Assembly: GCA_035527275.1 (NCBI GenBank) | Contig: DATLBA010000004.1 | Span: forward strand, 1 to 60,718 | Direction: 5' to 3' | DNA: 60,718 nt | Origin: Phycisphaerae bacterium | GTDB lineage: Bacteria > Planctomycetota > Phycisphaerae > FEN-1346 | Part shown: in pieces, positions 1,811-39,593 of the stretch | How positions within the stretch are numbered: position 1 is the stretch's first letter | Layout of the letters: each line of letters begins with the position of its first letter | The notes under the pieces: model-generated | The model's input: the letters and a program-made list of their open reading frames with translations, nothing else | What the model was told of the DNA's origin: nothing | Databases searched by the model: none | Made by a program: the position numbers and the translations under genes

Positions 1811-2365
1811 ATGAAGCGAGCGCGTTTTTCCGTTCTGCTGACCTGTGTGCTTTCCCTTTGTCTTGTCTCAGCGACGGCTGAGTCGCCTGAGAATCTTCCC
1901 GCGCCGCCCGGCCCGACTGCGTTTTCGGCCATCGTCAGCGGGGTGAGGGACGGGGACACGCTGGAGGTCGTGCGGGAGGGCCAAAAGGTCAGGCTGCGCC
2001 TGTTTGACGTGGCCTGCCCCGAACTCGATGAAAGGAACGGTGAGCGTGCGCGGCAGATTACGGCGAGAACGGTCGGCCAAACGCCCGTCTGGATTTTCCC
2101 CTCCGGGCGACGCGCCACCGACGCTCACGGCAGGATGCTGGTGCGGGTCTGGACGCAGAAGGGCTGGCTCTCTGACGTGCTCATCAAGGCGGGCGCAGCA
2201 ACGCGGTACGTGGATCCCGACGAGCCCACGGTCTATATCACGCGGGCGGGCAGCAAGTACCACCGGGAGAGCTGTGAGCACCTGCGAGAGAGCAGGATTT
2301 CGATCAGCCTGCCGATCGCGAAAGAGCAAGGCTACGAGCCGTGCAGCCGATGCGGACCACCGTAG
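1811..2365 (+). CDS. Secreted thermonuclease (SNase-like) protein with a C-terminal Cys/His metal-binding domain
   Basis: Signal peptide MKRARFSVLLTCVLSLCLVSATA, SNase motifs VRDGDTLEV and GRMLVRV, and C-terminal VYITRAGSKYHRESC...GYEPCSRC. Confidence 0.75.
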   Translation: MKRARFSVLLTCVLSLCLVSATAESPENLPAPPGPTAFSAIVSGVRDGDTLEVVREGQKVRLRLFDVACPELDERNGERARQITARTVGQTPVWIFPSGRRATDAHGRMLVRVWTQKGWLSDVLIKAGAATRYVDPDEPTVYITRAGSKYHRESCEHLRESRISISLPIAKEQGYEPCSRCGPP

Positions 2366-2568
2366 CCTAATGCGTGGCGCTGCTGGACAGCAGCGCGCCG
2401 GGCCCGAGCGACAAGGAGTCGGACGGCCATTCGGAGGCCGAACGAGGGCTTGCGACGTTGCGCCGAGGCGAGTAACATCCATGGAAAAGGCTCGCGACGG
2501 TCGGGGGCAGAATGGCATATGGAAAATCCCGGATGAAAGCGCTCCCGACCGATTCGGGGGGTGACGCC

Positions 2569-3000
2569 GTGGAACAAAGAACTGGAGCGGCATCCTCGAA
2601 AGCGGCTGGTTGGTCCACGGTGGCCTTCGGGGTATCTCTGCTGGCATCAACCGTTGCGGGCACGGTGCTCTTTGATGCGTGCATGATTGACCTGCTTGCC
2701 ATAGTAGTTGTGGTCCTTTCGTTTTACGTCCTTTCTGGCAGCCGGAAAGCCGCCAAGTGGCTTAGCTGGATCATGGTCGCGTACGCCCTTGTGTGGGCAA
2801 TCATGATAGTAGGCAGCTCGTTGACGCCGTGGCGGATCACGGTAGGAGGACGACCGGTTCCGGAACCCGTGTTGCCATGGGCGTTAGGGTTCATAGCCGC
2901 TGTTGGCATTTGGGCTGTCATCAACTTCTTCCTCTTGAGGCGCGCCATCACACAAGCCAGGGAAGCGGGTGTCCCTCCCGAAAACGCTATCCGGCCATGA
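2569..3000 (+). CDS. Hypothetical membrane protein (about 4 TM segments)
   Basis: Four hydrophobic stretches. Start is uncertain (ATG 2512 or GTG 2569). Confidence 0.6.
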   Translation: MEQRTGAASSKAAGWSTVAFGVSLLASTVAGTVLFDACMIDLLAIVVVVLSFYVLSGSRKAAKWLSWIMVAYALVWAIMIVGSSLTPWRITVGGRPVPEPVLPWALGFIAAVGIWAVINFFLLRRAITQAREAGVPPENAIRP

Positions 3001-3252
3001 AACCGATGTGAACGCCCTTGCAGACAAGGGATGTAGGTCCTCGTACAACAAGGCAGACGGCGTCGCCGGTGCGGAAAGTTACCTCGCCGCGTCGGATGCC
3101 TGACCGGTCTGCCGGACCCGGCCGGCGGCGAAAACAAGGCTGTACCTGGCAGGGCTGACGACTCCCTGTCACAGTAGCCGCGGCCTGCTGGTTGACATCC
3201 CCTGGCCTCATCTCTCCACGCGCATACCGGAGATTCCCTGACGGCCCTGTCC

Positions 3253-3357
3253 GGGTGTGACTCTTTTTAATGGCGCGGGCGTACGCCCGCGCTACCGCCC
3301 CGCCCTCCACGGCGGGTCTGCGCTGCGCTCCGACAAGCGGGGCGGCTAACGCCGTGG
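3253..3357. repeat. REP-like intergenic cluster
   Basis: GGGTGTGACTCTTTTT at 3253-3268 (also at 32781-32796), a perfect 20-bp palindrome GCGCGGGCGTACGCCCGCGC at 3273-3292, and the inverted pair CCACGGCG/CGCCGTGG at 3308-3357. Confidence 0.55.
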
Positions 3358-3514
3358 TGGACCCGACACGCAGGGGATAATGTGGTCACCCCCCCCTCCC
3401 CCCCGTCCAGGGGCAATTTATCTTGATGATAGCGGTCTTAAATATCCGATAGGTCTGAAGGACGGCAGGGGGGTCCACTCGTGGATGTCGTCCAGTGTGC
3501 TGGGAGGCCCCGGG

Positions 3515-5350
3515 ATGGCATCCCCAATCACCTGTCGGAAGAACGGGCTTCGGCTCCACTGTTTCGTGGCAGGCGCCGTGCCGATGGCGGCCTATCTGCT
3601 CGATTGGGCTTCCCCTGTCTGGATAGTGATGTGCCTTTCGGCGGCGTCGCTGGTTTCGGTTCGCCTCGCCGTGGTTGCCCGCCTTTACGACTTTTTCAAG
3701 ACACCGAAGAATCGCGCGGACGCGGAGTTTCATTACGGTGTCCATCGGTTCAACGAGGCGGTGCGGGTCGGCCTGCTTGGTTTAGGGTTGGGGCTGCTGC
3801 TGACCGGCTATCCCTTCGGTTGGCTTCCGATTTTGGCGGCGTCGGCCACGGCGCTTCTGGAAGCGGCGACGGGGTTTTCCGTGACGGCGCTCATTTACGC
3901 CGGGGCCATAGCGCTGGTGGGTCGCCTGGCGTCGGCCAAGCCGAAGCCCTTTGAACCCACCGCTGGCCGGTTGAACCCCGATTGCCTCATCTGCCGCGCA
4001 CTCGGCCGCGCCCCGTACCAGCGATGCCGGTGGTGCCGCCTGCCAAGTGTCCGGTGGTGCTGCGGTCTCCAGGCGTCCATGCTCCTGATGCTCCTGCTGG
4101 TGATTGCCTTTCTGCTCGACTCTCCCCTGGGGCCGTTCGTGACCAAGGTGCTGGTTGCGATGAGCATCCTGGCGGTGGTGGCGTTGGGTCTGGCGATTAA
4201 TCGGCAGACGGACGACCTGGTTTCAGCGCTGGACGACTCGTTCGAGAAGGGGGAGCGCAAGGCGAGGCGCTGCGCGTTTCTGAAGCGTTTGGCGGCGGCG
4301 CACTCGGTCGAAGCGGCCGCGCAGACGACCGTGGATTACGTCGGCAAAGCGGTGGGGGCGCGGCGAATCAGTGTGATGATTGCCGAGGAAGGGGTGCTTC
4401 GGATTGTGGCCTCGCGGGGACTTCCGCTGCACATCGCCGAGAAGGTCGAGGTGCCGCTCGATAAACGGATTTGTGGCCGCGTGTTTTCGACCGGCCGAGC
4501 CGTTCTGTTCCACGACGTGATGACCGAGATGCCGGCCCTTGCGTTGGGTCTTGAGGGAGCGGGCGCGTCGGCCTCGCTTCCGCTCATCACGGCGCCCATG
4601 GGCGCCAACGGAGACAAAGTCGGTTGTATCAATGTGACCGATAAGCCCGAGCGGGCGTTCTCCGAATCCGACACCGACGAGATGGAGTTTGTCGCGGAGG
4701 CGACGGCCATCAGCCTGGCGGGCCAGTTGGCGCACCGCCAGTTGGAAAAGGCCAACTATGACACGATCCGGGCGCTGGCGCTGGCGATGGAGGCAAAGGA
4801 CCCGTGCACGCACGGCCACTCGCTTCGGGTCCAGGCCTGGTGCGCGGCCATCGGCCGCGAACTCGGCTTCGGAAAGAAACGCCTGCAGGCCCTGTCCTGT
4901 GCCGCCGAGTTGCACGACATCGGCAAACTGGCCATCCCCGATGGGATTCTTCAGGCCGAACGTCCCTTGACCGACGCCGAGTGGGTCCTCATTCGCCAGC
5001 ATCCGTCCCGCGGCGTCCAACTGATCGAACACATCGGCTTTCTGAAATTGACGAAACCCATCATGCTCTACCACCACGAGCGGATCGACGGCGGCGGGTA
5101 TCCGGAGGGCCGCTCGGGCGATGAGATTCCGCTGGAGTCCAGGATTCTGGCCGTCGTGGACTCCTACGATGCGATGACCAGCGCGCGGCCGTATCGGCCC
5201 GCGCTCACGCACGAGGTGGCGGCGGCGGAACTCAGGCGGTGCGGGGGGGCCCAGTTCGATGCCGGTTGTGTCGAGATGTTCCTGGGGCTGCTGAGCAAGG
5301 AAGACGCCGCGTCGGTCCCGATAAACATCGGGGCCGAACGGCAACCGTGA
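3515..5350 (+). CDS. Membrane-anchored GAF + HD-GYP c-di-GMP phosphodiesterase (copy A, intact)
   Basis: N-terminal TM region, CLIC-x10-CRWC cluster, GAF region (RISVMIAEEG..LRIVASRG, VGCINVTDK, FSESD), and HD-GYP motifs GHSLRV, LHDIGK, HHERIDGGGYP, DSYDAMTSARPYR. Confidence 0.9.
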   Translation: MASPITCRKNGLRLHCFVAGAVPMAAYLLDWASPVWIVMCLSAASLVSVRLAVVARLYDFFKTPKNRADAEFHYGVHRFNEAVRVGLLGLGLGLLLTGYPFGWLPILAASATALLEAATGFSVTALIYAGAIALVGRLASAKPKPFEPTAGRLNPDCLICRALGRAPYQRCRWCRLPSVRWCCGLQASMLLMLLLVIAFLLDSPLGPFVTKVLVAMSILAVVALGLAINRQTDDLVSALDDSFEKGERKARRCAFLKRLAAAHSVEAAAQTTVDYVGKAVGARRISVMIAEEGVLRIVASRGLPLHIAEKVEVPLDKRICGRVFSTGRAVLFHDVMTEMPALALGLEGAGASASLPLITAPMGANGDKVGCINVTDKPERAFSESDTDEMEFVAEATAISLAGQLAHRQLEKANYDTIRALALAMEAKDPCTHGHSLRVQAWCAAIGRELGFGKKRLQALSCAAELHDIGKLAIPDGILQAERPLTDAEWVLIRQHPSRGVQLIEHIGFLKLTKPIMLYHHERIDGGGYPEGRSGDEIPLESRILAVVDSYDAMTSARPYRPALTHEVAAAELRRCGGAQFDAGCVEMFLGLLSKEDAASVPINIGAERQP

Positions 5351-5385
5351 TCCCGGCGCGCCGGGACCGAAGGCAGCCCATGCCA

Positions 5386-5441
5386 TGTCATTCCGACCGA
5401 ATCCCGATAAAATCGGGATGAGTGGAGGAATCTCGCCGTTA
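5386..5441 (+). repeat. Left stem-loop repeat of the GIY-YIG cassette, with a nested ATCCCGAT-AAA-ATCGGGAT hairpin
   Basis: TGTCA-TTCC...GGAA-TCTCGCCGTTA. Its 11-bp end is a perfect inverted repeat of 5829-5839. Confidence 0.75.
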
Positions 5442-5445
5442 ATTT

Positions 5446-5475
5446 TTGCTATTGCCCTCTAGGCCCCTCTACAAT
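5446..5475 (+). promoter_or_regulatory. Putative sigma70 promoter of the GIY-YIG gene
   Basis: TTGCTA-N18-TACAAT, ending 24 bp before GTG 5500. Confidence 0.45.
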
Positions 5476-5499
5476 GGGCGCGCAACGAGGGCCTTTGCC

Positions 5500-5814
5500 G
5501 TGCGCCAATATTATGTCTATATCATGACTAACCGTTCCGGAACGCTTTACACCGGCGTCACCAACAACCTTGAGCGCCGGGTGTATGAACACAAACACGG
5601 CCTGTTGCCCGGCTTCACCAAGAAGTACAACATCGACCGCCTGGTTTACTTTGAAGCGACGCCGGAGGTGACCGCGGCCATCGCCCGGGAGAAGCAGATT
5701 AAGCGGTGGCGGCGCGAGAAAAAGGTGGCCCTCATTGAATCGATGAACCGAAACTGGAAAGACCTCAGCGCCGACTGGTTCGGCGATTCTCGGCTGACTT
5801 CTGAACCGTGGTGA
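5500..5814 (+). CDS. Small standalone GIY-YIG nuclease (Ssn-like)
   Basis: YYVYIMT...LYTGVTNNLERRVYEHK...YNIDRLVYFE...AIAREKQIKRWRREKK is the single-domain GIY-YIG pattern. Confidence 0.9.
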   Translation: MRQYYVYIMTNRSGTLYTGVTNNLERRVYEHKHGLLPGFTKKYNIDRLVYFEATPEVTAAIAREKQIKRWRREKKVALIESMNRNWKDLSADWFGDSRLTSEPW

Positions 5815-5828
5815 GACGTCGGGGATAG

Positions 5829-5864
5829 TAACGGCGAGACCCCTCGACTTCGCTCGGGGTGACA
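5829..5864 (-). repeat. Right stem-loop repeat of the GIY-YIG cassette (inverted)
   Basis: Reverse complement is TGTCA-CCCC-GAGCGAAGTCGA-GGGG-TCTCGCCGTTA. Confidence 0.8.
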
Positions 5865-5889
5865 AAATGGGGGGCTTAATGGACCGAAT

Positions 5890-6074
5890 TCACTGGCCGG
5901 AAGGTGACCCGGTCGCAAAGGGTTTCGCTTTTTCTCTCGACAGGAGGATGTCCGGCGCAACGTAGAACGGCTGCGCCTTGGTCGGCGGGGGGAGGTTGGT
6001 GGTTTTCGGCGCGTAGCCGGGCTTGCCTGCCCTGGCATCGCTGGCGTGGGCCAGTTGCACCACGTCGAAACCTT
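5890..6074 (-). pseudogene. 3' remnant of the lipoprotein gene at 7815..8294
   Basis: 5889-6074 aligns without gaps to 7814-7999 (offset 1925). The signal peptide and 5' half are absent. Confidence 0.85.
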
Positions 6075-6367
6075 TTGGCATACCCTTGCCATAGCGGAAC
6101 GCCACGGCGCGCTATGGAGCCCCGTCCTGATATTTGCCTCCCAATCTGAATAGACGCGGAATTGATTTCACGGCTGGCGGGAAAGGGCCGAACTCGGCCT
6201 CGGATGCAGCCGGCGATTGGCGCTCCTGTCGCAGTTATGAGGGCCGTTCCGGCAAGATTTTATGTGATAAAGGTCGGTTTGCCCAGCCGATAATAGGAAT
6301 GCGCTTAAGAGGATGGAGTAACCGCACCTTTTTCGCACGGCCTCCCCCTTGGCTGAGGAGTGCTGGA

Positions 6368-7777
6368 ATGGCGTCCCCGTTCACCTGTCGGAAGAATGGG
6401 CTTCGGCTCCACTGTTTCGTGGCAGGCGCCGTGCCGATGGCGGCCTATCTGGCCGATTGGGCTTCCCCTGTCTGGATAGCGCTGGGCCTTTCGGCGGCGG
6501 CGTTGGTTTCGGTTCGCCTCGCCGTGGTTGCCCGCCTTTACGACTTTTTCAAGACACCGGAGGACCGTGCGGACGCGGAGTTTCATTACGGTGTCCATCG
6601 GTTCAACGAGGCGGTGCGGGTCGGCCTGCTTGGTTTAGGGTTGGGGCTGCTGCTGACCGGCTATCCCTTCGGGTGGCTTCCGATTCTTGGGGCGTCGGCC
6701 ACGGCGCTTCTGGAAGCGGCGACGGGGTTTTCCGTGACGGCGCTCATGTACGCCGGGGCCATCGTGCTGGCGGGCCGCCAGGCGCCGGCCGAGCCGAAGC
6801 CCTTTGAACCCACCGCTGGCCGGTTAAACCCCGATTGCCTCGTCTGCCGCGCACTCGGCCGCGCCCCGTACCAGCGATGCCGGTGGTGCCACCTGCCAGG
6901 TGTCCGGTGGTGCTACGGTCTCCAGGCGTCCATGCTCCTGATGCTCCTGCTGGTGATTGCCTTTCTACTCGACTCGCCCCTGGGGCCGTTCGCAACCAAG
7001 GCGCTGGTTGCGATGAGCATCCTGGCGGTGGTGGCGTTGGGTTTGGCGATTAATCGGCAGACGGACGACCTGGTCTCAGCGCTTGACAACTCGTTCGAGA
7101 AGGGGGAGCGTGAGGAGTGGCGGTGCGCGTTCCTGAAGCGTTTGGCGATGGCGGACTCGGTCGAAGCGGCCGCACAGGTAGCCATCGATTACGCCGGCGA
7201 AGCGGTGGGGGCGCGGCGAATCAGTGTGAGGATTGCCGAGGAAGGGGCGCTTCGGATCCAGGCTTTGTGCGCGGGCATCGGCCGCGAACTCGGCCTCTCA
7301 GAGGAACGCCTGCAGGCCCTCTCCTGTGCCGCCGAGTTGCACGACATCGGCACACTGGCCATTCCCGATAGGATTCTTCGGGCCGAACGCCCCTTGACCG
7401 ACACCGAGTGGGTCCTTGTGCGCCAGCACCCGTTGTGCGGCATCCAACTGATCGAACACATCAGCTTTCTGAAGTTGGCGAAGCCCATCATGCTCCGCCA
7501 CCACGAGCGGATCGACGGCAGCGGGTATCCGGATGGCTGCTCAGGCGATGAGATTCCGCTGGAGTCCAAGATTCTGGCCGTCGTGGACTCCTACAATGCC
7601 ATGACCAGCGCGCGGCCGTATCGGCCGCCACTCACGCACGAGGCGGCGGTGGCGGAACTCAGGCGCTGTGCAGGCACCCAGTTCGATGTCGATTGTGTCG
7701 AGACGTTCCTGGGGCTGCTGAGCAGGGAAGACGCCGAGTCGGCCCCGATAAGTATCGGGGCCGGGGAAGCCTCCTGA
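6368..7777 (+). CDS. HD-GYP paralog (copy B) with an in-frame 426-bp deletion of the GAF domain and start of the HD domain; probably catalytically impaired
   Basis: Collinear with copy A. Length 1410 vs 1836 bp. Junction GCTTCGGAT at 7249-7257. Lacks EAKD..GHS; has HDIGT and DSYNAM variants. Confidence 0.8.
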   Translation: MASPFTCRKNGLRLHCFVAGAVPMAAYLADWASPVWIALGLSAAALVSVRLAVVARLYDFFKTPEDRADAEFHYGVHRFNEAVRVGLLGLGLGLLLTGYPFGWLPILGASATALLEAATGFSVTALMYAGAIVLAGRQAPAEPKPFEPTAGRLNPDCLVCRALGRAPYQRCRWCHLPGVRWCYGLQASMLLMLLLVIAFLLDSPLGPFATKALVAMSILAVVALGLAINRQTDDLVSALDNSFEKGEREEWRCAFLKRLAMADSVEAAAQVAIDYAGEAVGARRISVRIAEEGALRIQALCAGIGRELGLSEERLQALSCAAELHDIGTLAIPDRILRAERPLTDTEWVLVRQHPLCGIQLIEHISFLKLAKPIMLRHHERIDGSGYPDGCSGDEIPLESKILAVVDSYNAMTSARPYRPPLTHEAAVAELRRCAGTQFDVDCVETFLGLLSREDAESAPISIGAGEAS

Positions 7778-23357: not shown

Positions 23358-23434
<77 letters not shown>

Positions 23435-29258: not shown

Positions 29259-29499
29259 TCACGTGACGTCGAGGGTGCCGACGAGGTCGCGCGGGCTCCC
29301 GCAGCCCAACCTCCGAAGCGCCTCACCCAACCCCTCGACCAGTTCTCTTCCTGTTTCCGGATTGATGAAGTTCACCGTTCCGACGGCGACGCAGGTCGCC
29401 CCCGCGCGGAGGAACTCCAAGACGTCCTCGACGAACTGGATGCCGCCGAGACCCATGATCGCGATGCCGCGCGGCCCCGCGACCTCTTCCCACACGCGG
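29259..29499 (-). pseudogene. 3' remnant of pyrD (direct repeat)
   Basis: 29272-29499 aligns without gaps to 30749-30976 (offset 1477). Confidence 0.88.
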
Positions 29500-29577
29500 T
29501 TAACATACCTCATCGCGACGATCTCCCGCGCGTCTCGACACGGGACCGGCGTCGGCCACCGTTTCATCGTGCGCGGC

Positions 29578-30657
29578 TCACACTGCGCCCTGGATGGCCG
29601 CCTCCAGGTCCTCAAGTTCCTCCGTCCCGAGGTGAACGCGGATCGTCACACCCGCCTCGAACGATTCGCCCGGCGCCAGCAGCGGCATCAGGCCTCGCTT
29701 GCGAAGTTCGGCTCGCGGCAGCAAGGGCGCGTTACACGGCTCAATGCCCAGGACGTAGGTCCCCTGGCCTATCATCTTCCATTGGGTTAGATAGCCAAGA
29801 GTCGCCTTGGGCCACTCGAGCGAGATAGCGAAGCCGGCGTCGAGTCCCGGATTCACCAAGGCCGCGCGGCACAGGCCGTCGGCCCCCGCAATCGGCTCGA
29901 TTCCGTACACCTGCTCCTTGAAGCCAGGCGTCGGCGGGCCCATTCGGGTATGGCTGTCGAGCCCAGAGGCGGCGTGGTCGGTAAGCGGCGTCACCGATTC
30001 GGCGTGGACCAGCATGCGGCTCTCCTCAGACACCAAAGGCCAGCCCAGGTTCACGTGATACAAGAGCATCGCCGTGCTCTCTTCGTATCCGACGTTGGTG
30101 ACGCGATCGGCGATGGCAATGGCCCGCGACCCCATCACGGTCGAGATCGTCCGTTCCAGGACAAGGGTCGGCTTGAAGACCTGGGCCTCCGTCATTCGGC
30201 CGCGGATACGGATACGGTACTCGTCGCCTTCCCAGTGGCGCTCGACCCCCCCTTCGGTCGCCGAGAGGTGGGCCGCCCGCCCGTGCAGGCCCCACGACTC
30301 GTCCGCCTCGGTGTCCGGGAACCCAAAATGCCGCAGCCCGCACGTCGTCAGGAGCCCCGCGTAGAACGACCGCAGCCAACCCAGCCCGTCCGGCTCATAG
30401 CGCTCCGGCCGCACAGGCCCCGTGCTGGATTCCCAAGCGAACGCGCGCCCCGCAAACCGAGCGGCGCCGATATCCAGACACCGGTCTGGAAGAACCGTGA
30501 ACTGAAGGCCCGAACCGGTCCAGACGTCGATGCCGCGCATCCCGCGCGCGGGGCCGTCGTCGAAGACAAACGCCCGCGCGCCGGCCACCTGATCCATCCG
30601 ACCGACGCGCTCCGTCAACTCGGCACGACTTAGCGACCGGCCAAAAAGATTTGCCAT
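29578..30657 (-). CDS. DUF4432 / aldose 1-epimerase-like (galactose mutarotase fold) protein
   Basis: GLQFTVLPDRCLDIG, LLTTCGLRHFG, GLHGR, LLYHVNLG, YVLGIEP. Confidence 0.85.
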   Translation of the reverse strand: MANLFGRSLSRAELTERVGRMDQVAGARAFVFDDGPARGMRGIDVWTGSGLQFTVLPDRCLDIGAARFAGRAFAWESSTGPVRPERYEPDGLGWLRSFYAGLLTTCGLRHFGFPDTEADESWGLHGRAAHLSATEGGVERHWEGDEYRIRIRGRMTEAQVFKPTLVLERTISTVMGSRAIAIADRVTNVGYEESTAMLLYHVNLGWPLVSEESRMLVHAESVTPLTDHAASGLDSHTRMGPPTPGFKEQVYGIEPIAGADGLCRAALVNPGLDAGFAISLEWPKATLGYLTQWKMIGQGTYVLGIEPCNAPLLPRAELRKRGLMPLLAPGESFEAGVTIRVHLGTEELEDLEAAIQGAV

Positions 30658-30726
30658 CGCCATACTCCCATCCTCGGTCCATGTCGGCCTGCTGGGCCAG
30701 GGGGGACCGCTAACGCGGTCACCCGC

Positions 30727-31674
30727 CTACGTCTTTCCCCCGGCCTCCAGGGCGCCGACGAGGTCGCGCGGGCTGCGGCAGCCCAGCTTCCGAAGCGCCT
30801 CACCCAGCCCCTCGACCAGTTCTCTTCCTGTTTCCGGATTGATGAAGTTCGCCGTTCCGACGGCGACGCAGGTCGCCCCCGCGCGGAGGAACTCCAAGAC
30901 GTCCTCGACGAACTGGATGCCGCCGAGACCCATGATCGCGACGCCGCGCGGCCCCGCGACCTCTTCCCACACGCGGCGAACCATGTAGAGGGCAACCGGC
31001 TTAATGGCCGGGCCCGACAGGCCGCCCGTCACGTTGGTCAGCACCGGGCGCCCGGTCCACGGATCAACCGCGAGCCCGCGCAGCGTGTTGATGAGGCTGA
31101 GGGCGTCGGCGCCCGCGTCCACTGCCGCGCGGGCCATGGACGCAATATCCGTCACGTTCGGGCTAAGTTTCACGATGAGCGTGGCGCGCGAGACCTCCTG
31201 CCGCGCCGCTTCCACGAGCCCGGCCAGAAGGCGGGCGTCCACGCCGAATTCCATCCCACCCTTTTCGACGTTCGGGCACGAGACGTTCAGTTCAATCCCG
31301 GCGACGTCCGTAGCGGCGTCCAGCGCGCGGGCCGCCTCCACGTATTCTTCCTGCGTCGAGCCGGCTACGCTGACAATCACCGGGACGTCGTATTGTGCGA
31401 GGGCCGGCAGTTTTTCGTTCAGGAACGCTTCCAGGCCGACGTTCGCCAGGCCGATGGCGTTGAGCATCCCGGCCCGCGTTTCCGCCAGTCGCGGAGGCGG
31501 GTGGCCCTCACAGGGCGCGAGGGTGATGGATTTTGTGACAATCGCCCCCAGAATCGACGGGTCGAAGAACGCCGCAAGTTCCTCGCCATACCCCGAGCAG
31601 CCGGAGGCCGTCGCAATCGGATTCTTCATCCGAATCCTGCCGACCGTCACGCTGAGGTCCACCTTATCGCTCAT
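30727..31674 (-). CDS. pyrD: Dihydroorotate dehydrogenase (family 1B) catalytic subunit
   Basis: KNPIATASG, TKSIT, GMLNAIGLAN, IELNVSCPN, VKLSPN, GGLSGPAIKP, GLGGI, VGTANF. Confidence 0.95.
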   Translation of the reverse strand: MSDKVDLSVTVGRIRMKNPIATASGCSGYGEELAAFFDPSILGAIVTKSITLAPCEGHPPPRLAETRAGMLNAIGLANVGLEAFLNEKLPALAQYDVPVIVSVAGSTQEEYVEAARALDAATDVAGIELNVSCPNVEKGGMEFGVDARLLAGLVEAARQEVSRATLIVKLSPNVTDIASMARAAVDAGADALSLINTLRGLAVDPWTGRPVLTNVTGGLSGPAIKPVALYMVRRVWEEVAGPRGVAIMGLGGIQFVEDVLEFLRAGATCVAVGTANFINPETGRELVEGLGEALRKLGCRSPRDLVGALEAGGKT

Positions 31675-32669
31675 GTTTCGTCCCAGATCATTTCGCGTGC
31701 GTCCACCACAGGTCCGTCGCGGCAGGTAAGAAAGTAAGTCCATCCCTTGTTGCTCGCGGGGTCACGCCGCTTGGCCACACAGGACAGGCACACGCCGACA
31801 CCGCAGCCCATGTATCGCTCGAGCGAAACTTGGCAGGGCAGGTCATGGGCCTCGGCCAGTTTCGCCAGGGCCTTCAGCATCGGCTCCGGCCCACAGCCGT
31901 ACAGGGCCGGCGGCCGGCCGTTCCACCCCTCGCCAAGCCAAGTCTCGAGTGCCGCCGTCACCGGCCCGCCAAACCCCGCGCTGCCGTCGTCGGTCGCAAG
32001 AACGGTCGGAATGCCGGCGGCGGCGAATTCCTCGATGGCCTCGGTCGCTTCCGGCCGGTCGCGCGTGGCGGCCGGCGGCGTGCGAAAGGTGACCGGCATA
32101 GCCGCGGCAGTCGGGCAACCGAAAAACGATAGGCATGGTTTGCCGAGGGCCGCCAGGCGGTCGGCCAGGCCGAGAATCGGCGCAAGGCCGCATCCGCCGC
32201 TCACGAGCACGCATAGCCGCTCGTCCGTCGGCGGCGTAAAGTAAGTACCCAGCGGCCCGACGACGTCCAGCGCAGCGCCGACCGGCTGCTCCTGTAGGAA
32301 TCGCGAGCCCGCGCCCCGGCGCTGAACCAGCAAAATCAGCCGCACCCGGTCGCCTTCTCGCCGTATGCGCGAGATGCTATAAGGGCGGCGCACAATCGGA
32401 CCCGGCTGGGCAAGTTCCAGGCCTTCCGTCCGCGGCCAGACGCTTTCGCCGTCGAGGACGCGGCCGTCCGTAGCGGCGGGTGCGTGCTCGTCAGGCATGC
32501 AAAGGACGTTGACGAACTGGCCGGGCAGACTTCGCCAGTCGGCGGGAGCCTCCAGGGTCAGCCAGACGAACTCACGTCCCGCGTGGCGGCGGTCCAAAAC
32601 CGGCAACTTGAGCCGCCGCGCCGGCAAGACGTTCACGTTACCTGTGGCCGCATCGGCCTTCATGCGCAC
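31671..32669 (-). CDS. pyrK: Dihydroorotate dehydrogenase electron-transfer subunit
   Basis: PGQFVN, RRPYS, VGPLG, GGCGLAP, YGCGP, MGCGVGVCLSC, CRDGPV. Confidence 0.9.
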   Translation of the reverse strand: MRMKADAATGNVNVLPARRLKLPVLDRRHAGREFVWLTLEAPADWRSLPGQFVNVLCMPDEHAPAATDGRVLDGESVWPRTEGLELAQPGPIVRRPYSISRIRREGDRVRLILLVQRRGAGSRFLQEQPVGAALDVVGPLGTYFTPPTDERLCVLVSGGCGLAPILGLADRLAALGKPCLSFFGCPTAAAMPVTFRTPPAATRDRPEATEAIEEFAAAGIPTVLATDDGSAGFGGPVTAALETWLGEGWNGRPPALYGCGPEPMLKALAKLAEAHDLPCQVSLERYMGCGVGVCLSCVAKRRDPASNKGWTYFLTCRDGPVVDAREMIWDET

Positions 32670-34435: not shown

Positions 34436-35065
34436 ATGAGCCGATACATTCCCAACCTGCTGACGGTCGGCCGGTTCTTCATGGCGATCGGCTTTTTCGT
34501 CGTGCTCGCCTTCTACGACGCCGAGGAGGCGGCCGGGTGGCCCGTGCTGGACATCGCCACCGTCATTTTTCTCGTGGCGGTGTTAACGGACGTGGTGGAT
34601 GGGTATCTTGCGCGGCGGCTGGGCCACGTGACGGCGTTCGGTCGGATCGCCGACCCCTTTGTGGACAAGATTATTATCTGCGGGGCGCTCGCCTACTTTA
34701 TCGGCGGCCAGTTCGTCCGCGTAGGGGAGGGCGGGGCGGCCGAGAATCTGACCGGCTGGGAACCGTGGATGGTCGTCGTGGTGCTGGCCCGGGAACTCCT
34801 GGTGACGGGGATGCGGAGTTTCAGCGAGTCGCACAAGGTCCCCTTTGCCGCCACGCTCAGCGGCAAGGTCAAGATGTTCATCCAGTGCGTGGCCGTGACG
34901 TGGGTCCTTGTCTATGTGGGCCATTACGCGGGCGACGCGAACCCGCCCACCTGGATGGTCGTCGGTCGGGACATCTCGATCTGGGCGGCCACGCTTTTCA
35001 CGGCCCTAAGCGGCCTCGTGTATATCAAGCGGGGCTACCACCTGCTGCGCATGGTGCCAGGCTAA
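34436..35065 (+). CDS. pgsA: CDP-diacylglycerol--glycerol-3-phosphate 3-phosphatidyltransferase
   Basis: PNLLTVGR, TDVVDGYLARRLGHVTAFGRIADPFVDK, GKVKM. rimO-pgsA synteny. Confidence 0.88.
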   Translation: MSRYIPNLLTVGRFFMAIGFFVVLAFYDAEEAAGWPVLDIATVIFLVAVLTDVVDGYLARRLGHVTAFGRIADPFVDKIIICGALAYFIGGQFVRVGEGGAAENLTGWEPWMVVVVLARELLVTGMRSFSESHKVPFAATLSGKVKMFIQCVAVTWVLVYVGHYAGDANPPTWMVVGRDISIWAATLFTALSGLVYIKRGYHLLRMVPG

Positions 35066-35096: not shown

Positions 35097-36116
35097 TCAG
35101 AACGGGGGCTCGGCTTCCTGGTCCCCTGCTACGGCGCCGGCGCCCTGGTAATCGTCCGTGGGCACAGAGGTGAGGGCCTCGCGCGGGGAGGCGGGCGTAA
35201 AGCGCGTGTATTTCCACAGCCAGGTCAGCGGAATTCTTCCGACCGGGCCGTTTCGTTGTTTGGCGATGATGAGGTCGGCCTTTCCTTTCACCTTTTCGTA
35301 GGTTTCGGAGCCCTGCGGGTGGCGCATTTCCTCGCGGTGGAGAATCAGGACGACGTCGGCGTCCTCCTCAAGGGTGCCTGAGTCCCTGAGATCCGCGAGT
35401 CTCGGGCGCATAGATTCTTCGATGGGACGGCGCAATTGTGCAACAGCAATGATTGGGACGGCAAGTGACCTCGCAAGGGACTTCAGGCAGTGACTTATGC
35501 GGCTCATTTTGTAGTAAGGCGTCTCATCGCTTGCGGGCTCCAGCAGATGCACGTAATCAATGACTATAAGATTTGCTTGTCCGCTTTCTACCATGTGTCG
35601 GCATTTTTCGATCAACTGCTCCAGCGAGAGGGCGGGCGTGTCGTCGATGTAGAGAGGCGCCTCAAAGAGCTGCAACGCCGCCAGCTGAACCTTCTGGACC
35701 TCGGCGTTTGAGAGGGTCCCTTTGCGCAGCCGCTGGCCGTCCACGCTTGCGCGCGACGACAGGAGCCGCAGGGCGAGAGCCTCGCGGCTCATTTCGATGC
35801 TGAAGAAGGCGACGGGCTTTTTGAGGTCCACGGCGATGTGCTCGGCGATGTTCAGGACCAGCGCGCTTTTGCCGAAGCTCGGCCGGGACGCCAGGACGAT
35901 CATCTCGCCCGCCTGGAGCCCGCGCGTCATGTCGTCCAGTTCGTAGAACCCGGTTTCGAGCCCCGTGACCGCCCGTCCACCCTGCAAGTCGAGGTCCTGC
36001 AGGATATGACTACAGACAACCTTGATTGTGACAGCCTCTGCGGGTTGGTCGCCTAAGCGAGAAAACCAGTTCTTCTGTTGCTGGGAGTCCGCAGAGGAAA
36101 TGGATGATTCAGGCAT
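35097..36116 (-). CDS. DnaB helicase C-terminal-domain-only paralog (mosaic)
   Basis: SD AAGGGAG precedes ATG 36116. Walker A SRPSFGKS, FSIEMS, IVIDY, QLRR, LRDSGTLEEDAD, KQRNG. No DnaB N-terminal domain. Two blocks are near-identical to the neighbouring dnaB. Confidence 0.85.
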   Translation of the reverse strand: MPESSISSADSQQQKNWFSRLGDQPAEAVTIKVVCSHILQDLDLQGGRAVTGLETGFYELDDMTRGLQAGEMIVLASRPSFGKSALVLNIAEHIAVDLKKPVAFFSIEMSREALALRLLSSRASVDGQRLRKGTLSNAEVQKVQLAALQLFEAPLYIDDTPALSLEQLIEKCRHMVESGQANLIVIDYVHLLEPASDETPYYKMSRISHCLKSLARSLAVPIIAVAQLRRPIEESMRPRLADLRDSGTLEEDADVVLILHREEMRHPQGSETYEKVKGKADLIIAKQRNGPVGRIPLTWLWKYTRFTPASPREALTSVPTDDYQGAGAVAGDQEAEPPF

Positions 36117-36149
36117 TGTATTCTCCCTTGGCATCAATAACGAATTTCC

Positions 36150-37577
36150 TTAAAATGGAATCTCCTCCTTGTCGCCCTCCGCTTCGCCTGCCACGGCGCC
36201 GGCGCCCTGGTAATCGTCCGTGGGCGCCGGGGTGAGGGCCTCGCGCGGGGAGGCGGGCTTGAAGCGCGTGTATGACCACTGCCAAGTCAGCGGAATGGTT
36301 CCGACGGGGCCGTTTCGCTGTTTTTCGATGATGAGGTCGGCCTTGCCTTTTTCCTGCGTGTAATTATCGCTCTTCGGGTCCATGTACATGGACGCACGAT
36401 GAAGGAGCATGACGACGTCGGCGTCCTGCTCGATGGCACCGGATTCGCGGAGGTCGCTCAATCGCGGTCGGCTGCGTTCCTCGCTTTCGCGCCGGAGTTG
36501 GGAGACGGCCAGGACCGGCACGTTCAGTTCGCGCGCCAGCGACTTGAGGCCCCGGCTGATGCCGGCCACTTCGACCTGGCGGTTCTCTTCGCGCCGGCCG
36601 CTGGTCATCAGTTGAAGGTAATCGACGATGATGAGTTTGATGTCGTGGCGGGCCAGCAGCCGCCGCGCCTTCGCCCGGAGACCAATGATGCGCAGGCCCG
36701 GCGTGTCGTCGATGTAGAGCGGCGCCTGGTAGAGGACGTTCGCCGCCTGCTGAACCTTCTGGACCTCGGCGTTTGAGAGGATGCCTTTGCGCAGCCGCTG
36801 GCCATCCACTTGCGCGCGTGAGGACAGGAGCCTGAGGGCGAGGGCCTCGCGGCTCATTTCGATGCTGAAGAAGGCGACGGGCTTTTCGAGGTCCACGGCG
36901 ATGTGCTCGGCGATGTTCAGGACCAGCGCGCTTTTGCCGACGCTCGGCCGGGACGCCAGGACGATCATCTCGCCCGCCTGGAGCCCGCGCATCATGTCGT
37001 CCAGTTCGTAGAACCCGGTTTCGAGCCCCGTGACGGCGCGGCCGCCCTGAAGGTCCAGCGCCTTCATCACCTGGCTGAGGATGGCGCGCACGTCCACCGC
37101 CTGCCCCACAATCTGGCGCTCGGTGACCTCGAAGATTCGTTTCTCGCACCGGTCGAGCACGTCATCAACCGAGTCGCCGGAGGCGTGCGCGTCGCGGATG
37201 ATTTCGCCCGCCGCCTGAATCAGCCCCCGCAAAAGCGCCTTGTCCTTGACCACGCGGGCGTAGTATTCGGCGTTGGCGGCCGAGGCGACGCTGTTATAGA
37301 CGTCCACGATGTATTCCCGGCCTCCGATCTCCTCCAGTTTGCCGGCATCGCGGAGGGCCTGCTCCAGCAGCACGCCGTCAAGCGGCTTATTCTCCTCGAA
37401 ACTTTTCTTCAGGAACTGGAAGATCGTGCGATGTTCCTGCCGGAAGAAGCAATCCTCATCGACCAATTCAAGACACAGCCCGAGCGCCTCGGGATTCATC
37501 ATCATGGAGCCCAGCGCAGCCATTTCGGCCTCAAGGCTGTGAGGGGGGACCTTGTCGAGTAACGTGTCGTCCGGCAT
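36150..37577 (-). CDS. dnaB: Replicative DNA helicase
   Basis: PPHSLEAE, SRPSVGKS, IVDYLQL, LRESGAIEQDAD, KQRNGP. Follows rplI. Confidence 0.96.
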   Translation of the reverse strand: MPDDTLLDKVPPHSLEAEMAALGSMMMNPEALGLCLELVDEDCFFRQEHRTIFQFLKKSFEENKPLDGVLLEQALRDAGKLEEIGGREYIVDVYNSVASAANAEYYARVVKDKALLRGLIQAAGEIIRDAHASGDSVDDVLDRCEKRIFEVTERQIVGQAVDVRAILSQVMKALDLQGGRAVTGLETGFYELDDMMRGLQAGEMIVLASRPSVGKSALVLNIAEHIAVDLEKPVAFFSIEMSREALALRLLSSRAQVDGQRLRKGILSNAEVQKVQQAANVLYQAPLYIDDTPGLRIIGLRAKARRLLARHDIKLIIVDYLQLMTSGRREENRQVEVAGISRGLKSLARELNVPVLAVSQLRRESEERSRPRLSDLRESGAIEQDADVVMLLHRASMYMDPKSDNYTQEKGKADLIIEKQRNGPVGTIPLTWQWSYTRFKPASPREALTPAPTDDYQGAGAVAGEAEGDKEEIPF

Positions 37578-37637
37578 CGCACACCCGGTTGCCAATAGCC
37601 GACGCGAAGGTGCCTCGCGGTTCGGCCATGGAGACTG

Positions 37638-37752: not shown

Positions 37753-38196
37753 TTACACGGGCACGACCCAGACGTCTATTTCCGCCTCTACGCCGGGAGC
37801 CAGATGGATCGGGACGCGGAACTTGTCCAGCGTTCGAATCGGCGCCGCCAGCGCCACCTGCTCCGGCCGGATGTCATACCCTTCGGCCGCCAGCGCATCG
37901 ACGATGTGCTTTTCGGTGACCGAACCGAACAGGTGGCCCAATTCATTCGCCTTGGCCTTGATGGTCACGGACGCGCTGCTCAATCGCGCGGCCGTTTGCT
38001 TGAGGCTTCCCAGGTGCTCCTTCTCGCGCTGTTCGCGCTCGAGGCGTTCTTTTTCGATGCGCTTCAGATTCGCAAGATTCGGTTCGACGGCCAGTTGTTT
38101 CGGCAAAAGGTGATTTCTCGCATACCCGTCGGGCACCTCGACCGTGTCGCCGATCGACCCCAGGTCGCGCACGTCCTGTCGCAGCAAGACTTTCAT
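37753..38196 (-). CDS. rplI: 50S ribosomal protein L9
   Basis: MKVLLRQDVRDLGSIGDTVEVPDGYARNHLLP, LFGSV. Confidence 0.96.
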   Translation of the reverse strand: MKVLLRQDVRDLGSIGDTVEVPDGYARNHLLPKQLAVEPNLANLKRIEKERLEREQREKEHLGSLKQTAARLSSASVTIKAKANELGHLFGSVTEKHIVDALAAEGYDIRPEQVALAAPIRTLDKFRVPIHLAPGVEAEIDVWVVPV

Positions 38197-38240
38197 CGTC
38201 GCATCTCCCGTAGCGGGGGGCGCCGGCGCCCCCGTGCCCA

Positions 38241-38492
38241 TCAACTCGTGTACGGCAGCAGGCCCAGGAACCGGGCCCGCTTCAGCGCCCGCTTCGCGAC
38301 GCGCTGGTGGCGGGCGCAGTTGCCGCTCCGCTTGCGGCTCAGCATTTTGCCCCGCGTGGTGATTAGTTTCTGGAGCGTCTGCGTGTCCTTGTAATCGATG
38401 TGGGTGACCTTCTCACGGCAGAATCGGCACTTCGCCCGCTCGCGGAAACCCACGAACTTCCGCCGCTTTCCTTCTTTCCTTATCTGAGCCAC
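38241..38492 (-). CDS. rpsR: 30S ribosomal protein S18
   Basis: CRFC..IDYKD..GKMLSRKRSGNCARHQR..KRARFLGLLPY (Zn-binding form). Confidence 0.96.
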   Translation of the reverse strand: MAQIRKEGKRRKFVGFRERAKCRFCREKVTHIDYKDTQTLQKLITTRGKMLSRKRSGNCARHQRVAKRALKRARFLGLLPYTS

Positions 38493-38537: not shown

Positions 38538-39011
38538 CTAGAACGGGATCGTGTCGTCCTCAACGTCCTCACTGTAATCGTAACCGCTTTCAGCGGTCTG
38601 GTCCTCGGCTCCGGCCGCTTCCTGTCGCTGAACGTCCTTGCCCGCCGTGGCGGGCGTGCTGCGCGGCCCGGTTTGGTCGCCGGCCCGGCCGAGAAACTGG
38701 AACCGCTCCACCGTCACCTCGAGTTTGCTGCGCTTCTTGCCGTCGGGCCCGTCCCACGTGCGGAAGGTCAGGCGACCCTCGACGAACAGGGGTCGGCCTT
38801 TGGTCATATATTTGGCAAGCGTCTCGGCGCTTCGCGCCCACGCCGTGCAATCGACGAAACAGACCTCTTCCCTTTTTTGGCCGTCCTGGCCGGCCCACTG
38901 CCGGTTGACGGCCATGCCGAAATCGCAAACGGCGACCTGGTTCGGCGTGTACCGCAGTTGCGGGTCGCGCGTCAGGTTTCCGATTAAAAGGACGCGATTA
39001 AAATTGGCCAT
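38538..39011 (-). CDS. ssb: Single-stranded DNA-binding protein
   Basis: NRVLLIGNLTRDPQLRYTP, KGRPLFVEGRL, acidic DDTIPF tail. Confidence 0.96.
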   Translation of the reverse strand: MANFNRVLLIGNLTRDPQLRYTPNQVAVCDFGMAVNRQWAGQDGQKREEVCFVDCTAWARSAETLAKYMTKGRPLFVEGRLTFRTWDGPDGKKRSKLEVTVERFQFLGRAGDQTGPRSTPATAGKDVQRQEAAGAEDQTAESGYDYSEDVEDDTIPF

Positions 39012-39086: not shown

Positions 39087-39566
39087 CTACGGCGGAGGCC
39101 CGTCGGCTTCGTCGGGCGCCGCGGCCTGGGGCTCGTCGGCTTCGTCGGGCGCCGCGGCCTGGGGCTCGTCGGCCGGTTTCTCATCGAGTGCGGCCGCCAG
39201 TTTTTGGGCGACCTCCTCGTGGACGTCCTCGCCCAACTGCATCCGCATATCCGCCACCGTGAAGTGGGAGGCTCGGAGGACGATCGCCCGCAGCACCTTC
39301 TCCGACAGTTGGCAGTCGCGCTCGATCTCCACCACGGCGCTGCCGTCCGTCAGGCAGAAGAAACTCAACACATACGTGCCGCGCTTCCGCTTTCCGATCG
39401 GGTAGGCCAGTTTTCGCTCGTCCCACCGGGTAATGCCGACCACCTCGGCGCCGTGGCGCGTCAGAATCCCCGTCAGATGTTTCGAGAGGTCGTCCCAGGC
39501 GGCGGCGTCGCCGGGGTCCACAAGAAACATCGCCTCATACACGCGAATCTCGCTCTCGTTCGCCAT
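39087..39566 (-). CDS. rpsF: 30S ribosomal protein S6
   Basis: YEAMFLVDP, WDERKLAYPI, G.Y, VLRAIVLR. rpsF-ssb-rpsR order. Confidence 0.93.
   Translation of the reverse strand: MANESEIRVYEAMFLVDPGDAAAWDDLSKHLTGILTRHGAEVVGITRWDERKLAYPIGKRKRGTYVLSFFCLTDGSAVVEIERDCQLSEKVLRAIVLRASHFTVADMRMQLGEDVHEEVAQKLAAALDEKPADEPQAAAPDEADEPQAAAPDEADGPPP
39101..39173. repeat. 33-bp tandem repeat (2.2 copies) in the rpsF tail
   Basis: CGTCGGCTTCGTCGGGCGCCGCGGCCTGGGGCT x2 + CGTCGGC; encodes ADEPQAAAPDE x2. Confidence 0.9.
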
Positions 39567-39593
39567 ACGTTTCCTGGTTGCCTCCAATGTCTG

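Follow-up and report, generated by a model that had tools for sequence, protein, structure and literature searches.

A 60,718-nt stretch of a Phycisphaerae bacterium genome (contig DATLBA010000004.1 of assembly GCA_035527275.1, positions 1 to 60,718, analysed at its full length and hereafter called the window) carries two DnaB-type genes in tandem: dnaB, encoding the full-length replicative helicase, and, directly downstream of it, dnaB', encoding a paralog that comprises only the motor part of DnaB. The explanation that best accounts for the data overall, and in which we place moderate confidence, is that dnaB' is a selected gene of a distinct DnaB-derived lineage, that it originated from a cassette and that its product serves as an accessory ring ATPase. 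The gene is an intact 339-codon open reading frame (ORF) free of frameshifts (Table 1); its start lies 33 nt past the dnaB stop, was placed identically by two independent gene callers, and is preceded by a GGGAG Shine-Dalgarno (SD) site located 7 nt ahead of the ATG. An intact frame of this length with an SD site of its own had already been reported in a preliminary description of the locus, made from the letters alone, and is confirmed here.

DnaB' matched a single Pfam family, DnaB_C (PF03796), at 1.9e-83 and over model positions 1-254 of 255. The DnaB N-terminal domain PF00772 yielded no Pfam match in DnaB'; the neighbouring DnaB matches it at 1.2e-28 and carries both DnaB domains. In DnaB, this N-terminal domain builds the trimer-of-dimers collar and binds primase. 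Against the NCBIfam model TIGR00665, DnaB' scored 305.9 bits, under the cutoff of 385.25, and the neighbouring DnaB 495.8; DnaB' also stayed under the cutoffs of the RadA/Sms and KaiC-type families (18.6 vs 403 bits for TIGR00416 and 23.5 vs 26.6 for PF06745). In BLASTP, 318 residues of DnaB' aligned with the neighbouring DnaB, from DnaB residue 164 onwards and at 68% identity. Walker A (GKS), the catalytic Glu (IEMS), Walker B (IDY), AQL, DLRDSG and KQRNG are all present, of which GKS, IEMS, IDY, AQL and KQRNG align to K216, E241, D320, Q362 and K418/R420 of Bst DnaB; R365, R381 and G384 (Bst numbering) are retained as well. The preliminary description was thus right that Walker A, Walker B and the KQRNG finger are kept. 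It had also counted about 40 N-terminal codons as unrelated to dnaB, which holds for only ~26 of them: codons 31-44 encode a diverged but homologous linker helix, recognised both by BLASTP and in the AlphaFold2 (AF2) monomer model. In the latter (predicted local distance difference test score, pLDDT, 83.5), residues 31-44 are helical, the RecA-like core is modelled with confidence and the acidic tail is disordered; the top Foldseek and PDB sequence matches of DnaB' are DnaB chains.

Relatives of DnaB' were collected from a one-genome-per-species scan, a metagenome scan with two peptide patterns and the best 150 matches of a representative library. The first of these revealed dnaB' in one other genome, a Phycisphaerae metagenome-assembled genome (MAG; L005), the other 18 loci carrying a single ordinary dnaB. 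The L005 dnaB (1986-3401) is followed by a dnaB' (3450-4457) whose product is 78% identical in amino acid sequence to that of the window and shares its N-terminal peptide. The metagenome scan with the dnaB'-specific block retrieved the L005 species again together with a third species (L027); one locus of the L005 species, L029, holds the complete operon rpsF-ssb-rpsR-rplI-dnaB-dnaB', and the rplI-dnaB-dnaB' order that the preliminary description had suggested looking for in related MAGs thus does recur. The SD site, start codon and N-terminal peptide of dnaB' are conserved in the orthologues. Among relatives whose DnaB is 76-80% identical (L038, L041, L044, L047 and others), no dnaB' was found within the fetched sequence, and the best matches from the representative library reached only ~52% identity. 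A more distant member, P0002, is a 322-aa protein devoid of an N-terminal domain that shares the DnaB'-type residues described below; it is encoded in a low-GC islet of locus L024, beside a protein resembling dCTP deaminase (DCD; Table 1). The islet may be a two-gene accessory module, and its position next to lexA, together with the membrane nature of the DCD-like protein, hints at a role in stress or defence. DnaB' represents a separate low-GC lineage derived from DnaB, defined here by the window, L005/L029, L027 and P0002. All dnaB' copies found have an intact frame; they come from four lineages, one of which is the unlinked P0002. A further candidate, P0004 (305 aa), was rejected as a motor-only paralog: it lies on a 986-nt contig without an upstream stop and is a 5'-cut ordinary DnaB. 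The representative library also held P0005, a 573-aa protein with two fused tandem DnaB_C domains, no N-terminal domain and a degenerate second Walker A (GERS). Directly after the L005 dnaB' come a tRNA-Met gene, a tyrosine-integrase island, and then DNA methyltransferase-like and ParB-like genes (4515-6107); the tRNA-Met gene of the window that matches this one is located 11.6 kb away (23358-23434), and the 3' end of the L005 dnaB' differs past PREA.

A codon alignment of dnaB' and dnaB resolved a mosaic of blocks (Table 1). Two near-identical blocks flanking an AT-richer, strongly diverged central block had been described beforehand, the first at about 35630-35995 with an offset of 1065 and the second at 35130-35400 with an offset of 1062. 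The first was recovered as block L. The second is indeed highly similar to dnaB, but it ends near 35293, and the adjoining stretch, block M, is the most diverged of all. The central block is as divergent as had been stated, with a GC content of 0.545 vs 0.667, a saturated number of synonymous substitutions per site relative to dnaB (dS about 1.46-1.47) and a ratio of non-synonymous to synonymous substitutions (dN/dS) of 0.33. Differences in density were significant by Fisher tests both between block L and the central block (p = 1e-23) and between blocks R and M (p = 4e-8). The central block is ~50% identical to every DnaB compared and displays no special affinity to the neighbouring dnaB. As to block M and its dnaB counterpart (36353-36410), the atypical member of the pair is, judging from the relatives, dnaB and not dnaB': all other DnaBs fetched from the clade and all DnaB' proteins are of the HREEMRH type at this 18-codon patch, and the dnaB of the window alone differs.

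Quartet-informative sites were next counted in a four-way codon alignment of dnaB and dnaB' from the window and from L005. Sites grouping the genes by orthology outnumbered sites of concerted type 58 to 1 in the N-terminus and linker helix and 79 to 4 in the central block (137:5 when pooled); block L, in contrast, had 5 orthology and 19 concerted sites, and blocks M and R none against 8 and none against 18, respectively, so that the flanking blocks together grouped by genome at 45:5. In the Walker A region, the dnaB' of the window is 97-99% identical to its own dnaB, 87-92% to the dnaB of L005 and 63-80% to the dnaB' of L005. A DnaB'-type block L (QPEDLIVIASWPSVGKST) is common to L005 and L027 and differs from block L of the window; the latter has therefore been overwritten by dnaB. 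The dnaB and dnaB' of L005 are 96-99% identical to each other in blocks M and R. On the strength of these alignments, the mosaic is the product of gene conversion, with tracts that differ between lineages; at the 3' end, conversion has also run in the opposite direction, or reciprocally. An earlier reading of the L005 3' conversion as dnaB' to dnaB, which took HREEMRH for the DnaB' type, was dropped, HREEMRH being the normal DnaB type of the clade.

Between the window and L005, the central block of dnaB' has a dS of 0.51, a dN of 0.091 and a dN/dS of 0.177; the same columns of dnaB yielded 0.492, 0.087 and 0.178. The unique N-terminus of dnaB' gave a dN/dS of 0.34 over 28 codons. This substitution pattern marks dnaB' as a genuine gene that purifying selection has kept intact, and the dN/dS of about 1 with pseudogenised orthologues, contemplated in the preliminary description as a sign to the contrary, was not found.

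A close relative, L035, carries the single-copy form. Its rpsR, rplI and DnaB N-terminal domain are 99%, 97% and 98% identical to those of the window at the amino acid level, and it possesses one dnaB, directly followed by the pgsA-like gene. At the nucleotide level, this dnaB is 93-100% identical to the dnaB of the window through the central block and then 95-100% identical to the 3' end of dnaB' and the DNA downstream. The switch falls on a 16-nt stretch within the DADVV codons that occurs in both genes (Table 1), and the tandem and the L035 form differ by exactly one 1062-nt unit; junctions of the L035 type are spanned by contigs of three runs from two studies. In line with such an exchange of 3' ends, the dnaB of the window ends in ...GDKEEIPF, and the acidic tail usual in the clade (ending in PY or PF) is found on dnaB' instead. 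Beyond the present dnaB stop of L005, at a distance of 12 codons, there is an in-frame relic, ...EGNKDIPF*, and the L005 dnaB therefore formerly ended like that of the window and was later overwritten. The 1062-nt unit (35365-36426) amounts to a complete low-GC motor-only gene in circular permutation. The data would fit its insertion at the DADVV codons of an L035-like dnaB or, equivalently, an old tandem with exchanged 3' ends, and the 18-codon patch of dnaB would be the counterpart of block M contributed by the cassette. The tandem also occurs in L005, a more distant species, and the L035 state is therefore explained more parsimoniously by loss, through recombination at the short identity, than by gain. 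Given the single-copy form, dnaB' would not be essential in the L035 relative.

The tandem is real. Three ENA samples and a JGI sample furnished four other contigs that encode an identical 339-aa protein in the same arrangement and are 99.93-99.99% identical to the window over 6.5-21 kb. The longest exact run common to both copies is 53 nt, and assembly at k = 141 is therefore unambiguous. In X5, a further public run assembled with another assembler (Logan), contigs tile 35684-36432 across the unique junction; three overlapping ones, tiling 35819-36432, run from block L through the dnaB' N-terminus and the spacer into the dnaB 3' end. Both copies are spanned by the assemblies, contrary to the refuting case named in the preliminary description. 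That the second copy might have arisen in assembly, by chimeric or duplicated mis-joining of reads from the dnaB genes of co-occurring strains, gained some colour from the Logan k = 31 contigs of runs X1-X4, which are fragmented at the repeats and leave 35897-36150 uncovered, from the existence of close single-dnaB strains, and from one X5 contig that joins 36748 to 35684 (back 1065) via a shared 32-mer, a joint best explained by graph ambiguity or a co-occurring strain. This artefact is effectively refuted, since five assemblies from two pipelines concur at every base, the same tandem occurs with its own sequence in two other species, and the unique parts are coherently conserved at the codon level.

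Residue conservation was counted over 186 DnaBs, positions being given in Bst DnaB numbering. Six central-block positions that are 86-99% conserved in these DnaBs are altered in every DnaB': R307 (H/N/G in DnaB'), Q323 (H/N), R335 (P), E338 (K/R), E352 (S/T) and Q388 (E). Ordinary DnaBs deviate at three of the six at most. The loop-I motif (E/D)(N/S)R-x-x-E is absent from DnaB', its Arg (96%) being replaced by Pro and its Glu (86%) by Lys or Arg in all members, and the loop-I contacts N334 and Q336 with the intervening Arg (NRQ) have become T/P/A-P-Y (TPY in the window). Contacts of VcDnaB with single-stranded DNA (ssDNA) comprise N353, T355, N383, R384, R400, E401 and G403 (bioRxiv 10.1101/2024.11.09.622779); these residues map to our alignment at a constant offset, Bst numbering + 19. 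From the alignment, DnaB' retains the ATPase site and the arginine finger and is remodelled in one of three DNA-contact elements. Members of the lineage also lack one residue after Walker B, and the L005 and L027 proteins have lost the Arg of ARPS-GK. P0002 is 42% identical in the central block and deviates at 6/7 columns when these are chosen from the three close members only.

We propose the following course of events. The lineage, low in GC and apparently horizontally mobile, would have reached the chromosome of an ancestor of this organism as a ~1.06-kb cassette bearing a motor-only gene, which joined by homologous recombination inside dnaB, at the DADVV codons. Two reciprocal chimeras would have resulted, a dnaB with the 3' end of the cassette (RASMYMDP... 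patch and ...EEIPF tail) and a dnaB' with the native dnaB 3' end. Gene conversion would afterwards have exchanged tracts independently in each lineage, selection keeping the N-terminus, linker helix and central block distinct, and recombination at the 16-nt identity would excise the cassette exactly, yielding the single-copy form. DnaB' would be transcribed along with dnaB and, because the catalytic residues and arginine finger are all kept, would bind and hydrolyse ATP at ring interfaces. Its own linker helix would mediate assembly, a separate ring being more probable than entry into DnaB rings, and the grip of DnaB' on nucleic acids would be altered because the N-R-Q contacts of loop I are replaced. 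Homogenisation has been resisted by the linker helix, by the docking helix in its second half (LFEAP vs LYQAP) and by the segment holding Walker B, loop I, H3 and H4. Their resistance suggests selection against DnaB' acting as a DnaB subunit, which would tentatively favour a separate DnaB' ring over mixed rings, and the linker helix and docking helix may form an orthogonal interface. We infer that DnaB' is an accessory, strain-variable ring ATPase working on or beside the replicative-helicase system, not a second replicative helicase. The central block itself was considered as the loader-binding docking (DH) helix and rejected: that helix, marked by Trp294 in EcDnaB (PMC9912922), lies just before the central block, and only its second half is DnaB'-specific.

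Other origins and functions were weighed against this proposal. That the 3' two-thirds of dnaB were recently copied in tandem in this lineage, the DNA-binding patch then diverging under positive selection, is what the tandem arrangement, the offsets of 1062 and 1065 and the near-identity at Walker A would suggest at first sight, and a short H4 loop and a QLRR motif are common to DnaB' and planctomycete DnaBs. These latter features place the ultimate origin of DnaB' in a DnaB of the broad planctomycete group. A recent event is nonetheless very unlikely: the central block is saturated in dS, shows no sign of positive selection at a dN/dS of 0.33, has no affinity to its neighbour and is conserved in its diverged form in L005, L029 and L027, species in which block L is DnaB'-specific, so that its identity in the window is secondary; the diverged parts are moreover low in GC. 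Of the two origins put forward in the preliminary description, the duplicated dnaB with a swapped patch is thus disfavoured, the diverged block being shared with two other species and a distant member lying at another locus, and the foreign DnaB-like gene partly overwritten by its neighbour is supported, with its own low-GC lineage and a lineage-type block L preserved in two other species. A functionless remnant of a mobile-element helicase gene, repaired by conversion from dnaB, would be in keeping with the patchy distribution and absence from L035, with a low GC content suggestive of foreign origin, with the loss of near-invariant DnaB residues and with the occurrence in phages of DnaB-like helicases made of the C-terminal domain (CTD) only (phrog_243). 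We find this quite unlikely in view of a dN/dS of 0.18 in the conversion-free block, equal to that of the essential dnaB, of an intact ORF in four lineages, of the conserved SD site, start codon and N-terminal peptide, and of the lack of mobile-element genes flanking dnaB' in the window.

DnaB' could also be a dedicated partner of the helicase system. As a mimic of the motor tier, it might join or cap DnaB rings or keep the helicase loader busy, and thereby tune or arrest replication; alternatively, it might be a guard or decoy against DnaB-hijacking phage proteins. The preliminary description likewise had it possibly poisoning or modulating hexamers or diverting phage loaders. In either version, gene conversion would keep the mimic matched to its target, and the cassette would be a small accessory module gained and lost by homologous recombination inside an essential gene. 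We regard this as unlikely. A phage-defence decoy or sensor, which would mimic the loader-docking motor tier and titrate phage loaders or inhibitors or trigger an effector, has in its favour that dnaB' is strain-variable, low in GC and dispensable, as is usual for accessory defence genes, that P0002 shares its islet with the DCD-like coiled-coil protein, and that loaders of different families all dock on the module of linker and docking helices of the DnaB motor tier (PMC9912922). It is rather improbable all the same, as DnaB', DnaB and the DCD-like protein matched no family of PADLOC-DB 2.0, P0002 giving only a weak match over its P-loop (mad8, 5.7e-06); as no effector gene adjoins dnaB' in the window or in L005/L029, where the setting is that of a ribosomal-protein/dnaB operon; and as a linker helix and half a docking helix that differ from those of DnaB are a poor fit for a mimic. 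Defence-system, phage and plasmid searches with DnaB' and with the DCD-like protein likewise brought up nothing informative.

Several points weigh against the selected accessory ATPase that we favour. DnaB' has lost invariant DnaB residues, and in L005 and L027 also the ARPS-GK Arg, and helicase activity could be lost. Because the distribution is patchy, most relatives with 76-80% identical DnaB having a single dnaB, and because a close relative lacks dnaB', any function would be dispensable. The breadth of the family, gauged from the scans named above, is uncertain, with two to three close species and one distant member making up the lineage. At its level of central-block identity, P0002 owes its membership to shared derived residues, some of them in columns picked with P0002 included. 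An insertion is hard to tell apart from an old tandem duplication followed by exchanges, and L035 might show either a loss or the ancestral empty site. Co-transcription with dnaB is suggested by the 33-nt spacer and by the lack of a terminator-like site on its gene strand, and the run search identified no RNA runs carrying dnaB'.

Compared with DnaB (TIGR00665; 4ESV, 2R6A, 6QEL, 9DLS), DnaB' has in common the RecA-like CTD and linker helix, Walker A and B, the catalytic Glu, the Gln sensor, the R-x-x-G of the H4 loop and the K-Q-R arginine-finger hairpin, and is 36% identical to Bst DnaB, vs 68% to its neighbour. It differs in lacking the collar domain, in falling below the TIGR00665 cutoff, in being dispensable in a close relative, and in the replacement of the loop-I ssDNA contacts and of five other near-invariant residues. 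C-terminal fragments of DnaB keep ATPase activity, DNA binding and oligomerisation and lose most helicase activity. Such fragments (E. coli 33-kDa; H. pylori 4A1F; E. coli interaction domain 6KZA) resemble DnaB' in consisting of linker and motor; they are laboratory truncations, however, whereas DnaB' is a natural gene with its own N-terminal peptide and substitutions. RSF1010 RepA is a plasmid helicase with only or mostly a DnaB-type motor. Phage and plasmid helicases of this kind (phrog_243; the ATPase domain of SPP1 G40P, 3BH0) are, like DnaB', stand-alone RecA-type ring motors without a collar. They are only 29-45% identical to it, no nearer than any DnaB, and dnaB' belongs to a housekeeping operon rather than to a mobile element. 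Among phage families, DnaB' scored higher against the cellular-type phrog_19 (215.7 bits) than against phrog_243 (135.7 bits), its best phage matches being 38-46% identical, and the viral DnaB-like proteins fetched, in which the NR..E motif is missing, also read LEEDAD.

Bacterial paralogs can evolve in concert through gene conversion, tufA/tufB of enterobacteria being an example. The dnaB/dnaB' pair resembles such paralogs in the homogenisation of tracts, in an identity that is greater within a genome than between orthologues, and in lineage-specific tracts; unlike them, it unites an essential gene with a truncated accessory partner, is only partially homogenised, with resistant blocks, and has given rise to reciprocal chimeras and an exact presence/absence polymorphism. 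Replicative helicases are normally single-copy, essential and vertically inherited. Motor-only DnaB-type helicases are known from phages, plasmids and laboratory fragments, as is gene conversion between paralogs; our literature search found no report of a conserved chromosomal motor-only DnaB lineage in tandem, and recombining, with an essential dnaB. Here, an essential dnaB trades sequence with an accessory, apparently imported paralog, and would be a chimera both in the window and in a relative. The pair thereby offers a natural system in which to ask which parts of the DnaB motor are swappable, which must be kept distinct for two ring ATPases to coexist (the linker helix, half the docking helix, loop I and the Walker B region being candidates), and whether motor-only DnaBs regulate, back up or protect the helicase. 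With a 1062-nt presence/absence polymorphism between close populations, the question could be tested in metagenomes, and by genetics if a relative were cultured.

Table 1. Features of the dnaB/dnaB' locus in the window and of the P0002 islet in locus L024.
Feature	Position	Strand	Remarks
rpsF	39087-39587	-	same-strand run upstream of dnaB
ssb	38538-39011	-	same-strand run
rpsR	38241-38492	-	same-strand run
rplI	37753-38244	-	same-strand run
dnaB, full-length replicative helicase, 475 aa	36150-37577	-	Pfam and TIGR00665 (495.8 bits; cutoff 385.25); L001 gene table agrees
Atypical 18-codon dnaB patch HRASMYMDPKSDNYTQE	36353-36410	-	GC 0.50; counterpart of block M
16-nt stretch GGACGCCGACGTCGTC, DADVV codons	35349-35364 = 36411-36426	-	L035 switch point; recombination point between tandem and single-copy forms
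dnaB/dnaB' spacer with SD GGGAG	36117-36149	-	part of ~125-nt stretch ~97% identical to L005/L029 species
dnaB', motor-only DnaB paralog, 339 aa	35097-36116	-	ORF, BLASTP, Pfam, gene callers, AF2, Foldseek
DnaB'-specific N-terminal peptide, ~26 aa, MPESSISSADSQQQKNWFSR...	36039-36116	-	unlike DnaB; low GC; kept in L005 and L029; AF2 pLDDT <50 in parts
Diverged linker helix, residues 31-44	35985-36026	-	homologous to DnaB ~166-180; AF2 helix; quartet sites
Block L: Walker A, catalytic Glu, first half of docking (DH) helix	35642-35992	-	91% nt identity to dnaB, 97-99% in 35780-35970; offset 1065
Central block: outer helix, Walker B, remodelled ssDNA loop I (ETPYYKM), motif H3, H4 loop	35345-35641	-	56% nt identity to dnaB
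Block M	35291-35344	-	44% nt identity to dnaB; most diverged stretch
Block R, with arginine-finger hairpin KQRNG	35130-35290	-	89% nt identity to dnaB; offset 1062
dnaB' 3' part: block M, block R and acidic tail ending PPF	35100-35344	-	clade-typical DnaB 3' end; 95-100% identical to L035 dnaB 3' end
DnaB' peptide sequences MPESSISSADSQQQK; ...DETPYYK			
CDP-alcohol phosphatidyltransferase (pgsA-like) gene	34436-35065	convergent	downstream of dnaB'
Low-GC islet, 1.9 kb	L024 900-2850		after lexA; GC 0.545 vs ~0.68 in the region
DCD-like (dCTP-deaminase/dUTPase-fold) protein	L024 980-1822		coiled coil and C-terminal transmembrane helix; in islet beside P0002
P0002, distant DnaB' member	L024 1866-2834		in islet; no dnaB nearby

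In the window, dnaB is the final housekeeping gene of the run rpsF-ssb-rpsR-rplI-dnaB; its ATG lies at 37577, and an upstream TTG at 37595 is likewise open. A stretch of ~125 nt around the dnaB' start (window about 36040-36165; L005 3400-3530), which runs from the last part of the dnaB tail through the spacer and SD site into the first ~20 codons of dnaB', is ~97% identical between the window and the L005/L029 species, vs flanking genes that differ by ~19%; a search for an RNA element in this region gave a fold z-score of -1.5 and no Rfam match. On the opposite strand, the spacer holds a promoter-like match (TTGGCA-17-TAAAAT, 10/12; 36128-36156, +) directed antisense into the dnaB 3' end, followed 130 nt further on by a terminator-like hairpin of 15 pairs with a T-run (36288-36320, +). 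Both are probably due to chance, as shuffled sequences yield similar counts of terminator-like sites.

The DnaBs of the fetched Planctomycetota and Phycisphaerae loci (L006-L049) have x-P-F or x-P-Y at their C-terminus, preceded by an acidic run, for example ...KEEIPF, ...DEDEAPY and ...GGEPF, and thereby resemble the C-terminal tip of SSB, here ...EDDTIPF; the corresponding coordinates in the window are 36150-36185 for DnaB, 35100-35130 for DnaB' and 38538-38560 for SSB. A literature search on SSB-like DnaB tails found no relevant paper.

Elsewhere in the window, a 236-nt direct repeat of normal GC content (29269-29504 and 30746-30981, 95-96% identical) consists of the 3' end of pyrD (30727-31743, -) duplicated downstream of a DUF4432 gene (29578-30663, -), where it forms a pyrD-fragment ORF of 84-118 aa. 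Its geometry is like that of dnaB and dnaB', with an insert flanked by the duplicated 3' end of the upstream gene. Finally, two tandem plus-strand paralogs at 3380-5350 (656 aa) and 6134-7777 (547 aa) are made of mosaic blocks of 89-95% nt identity. On visual inspection, each combines an N-terminal multi-pass membrane region with an HD-GYP-like C-terminal region, the second lacking a GAF-like middle, and their mosaic suggests a second case of concerted evolution in the window.

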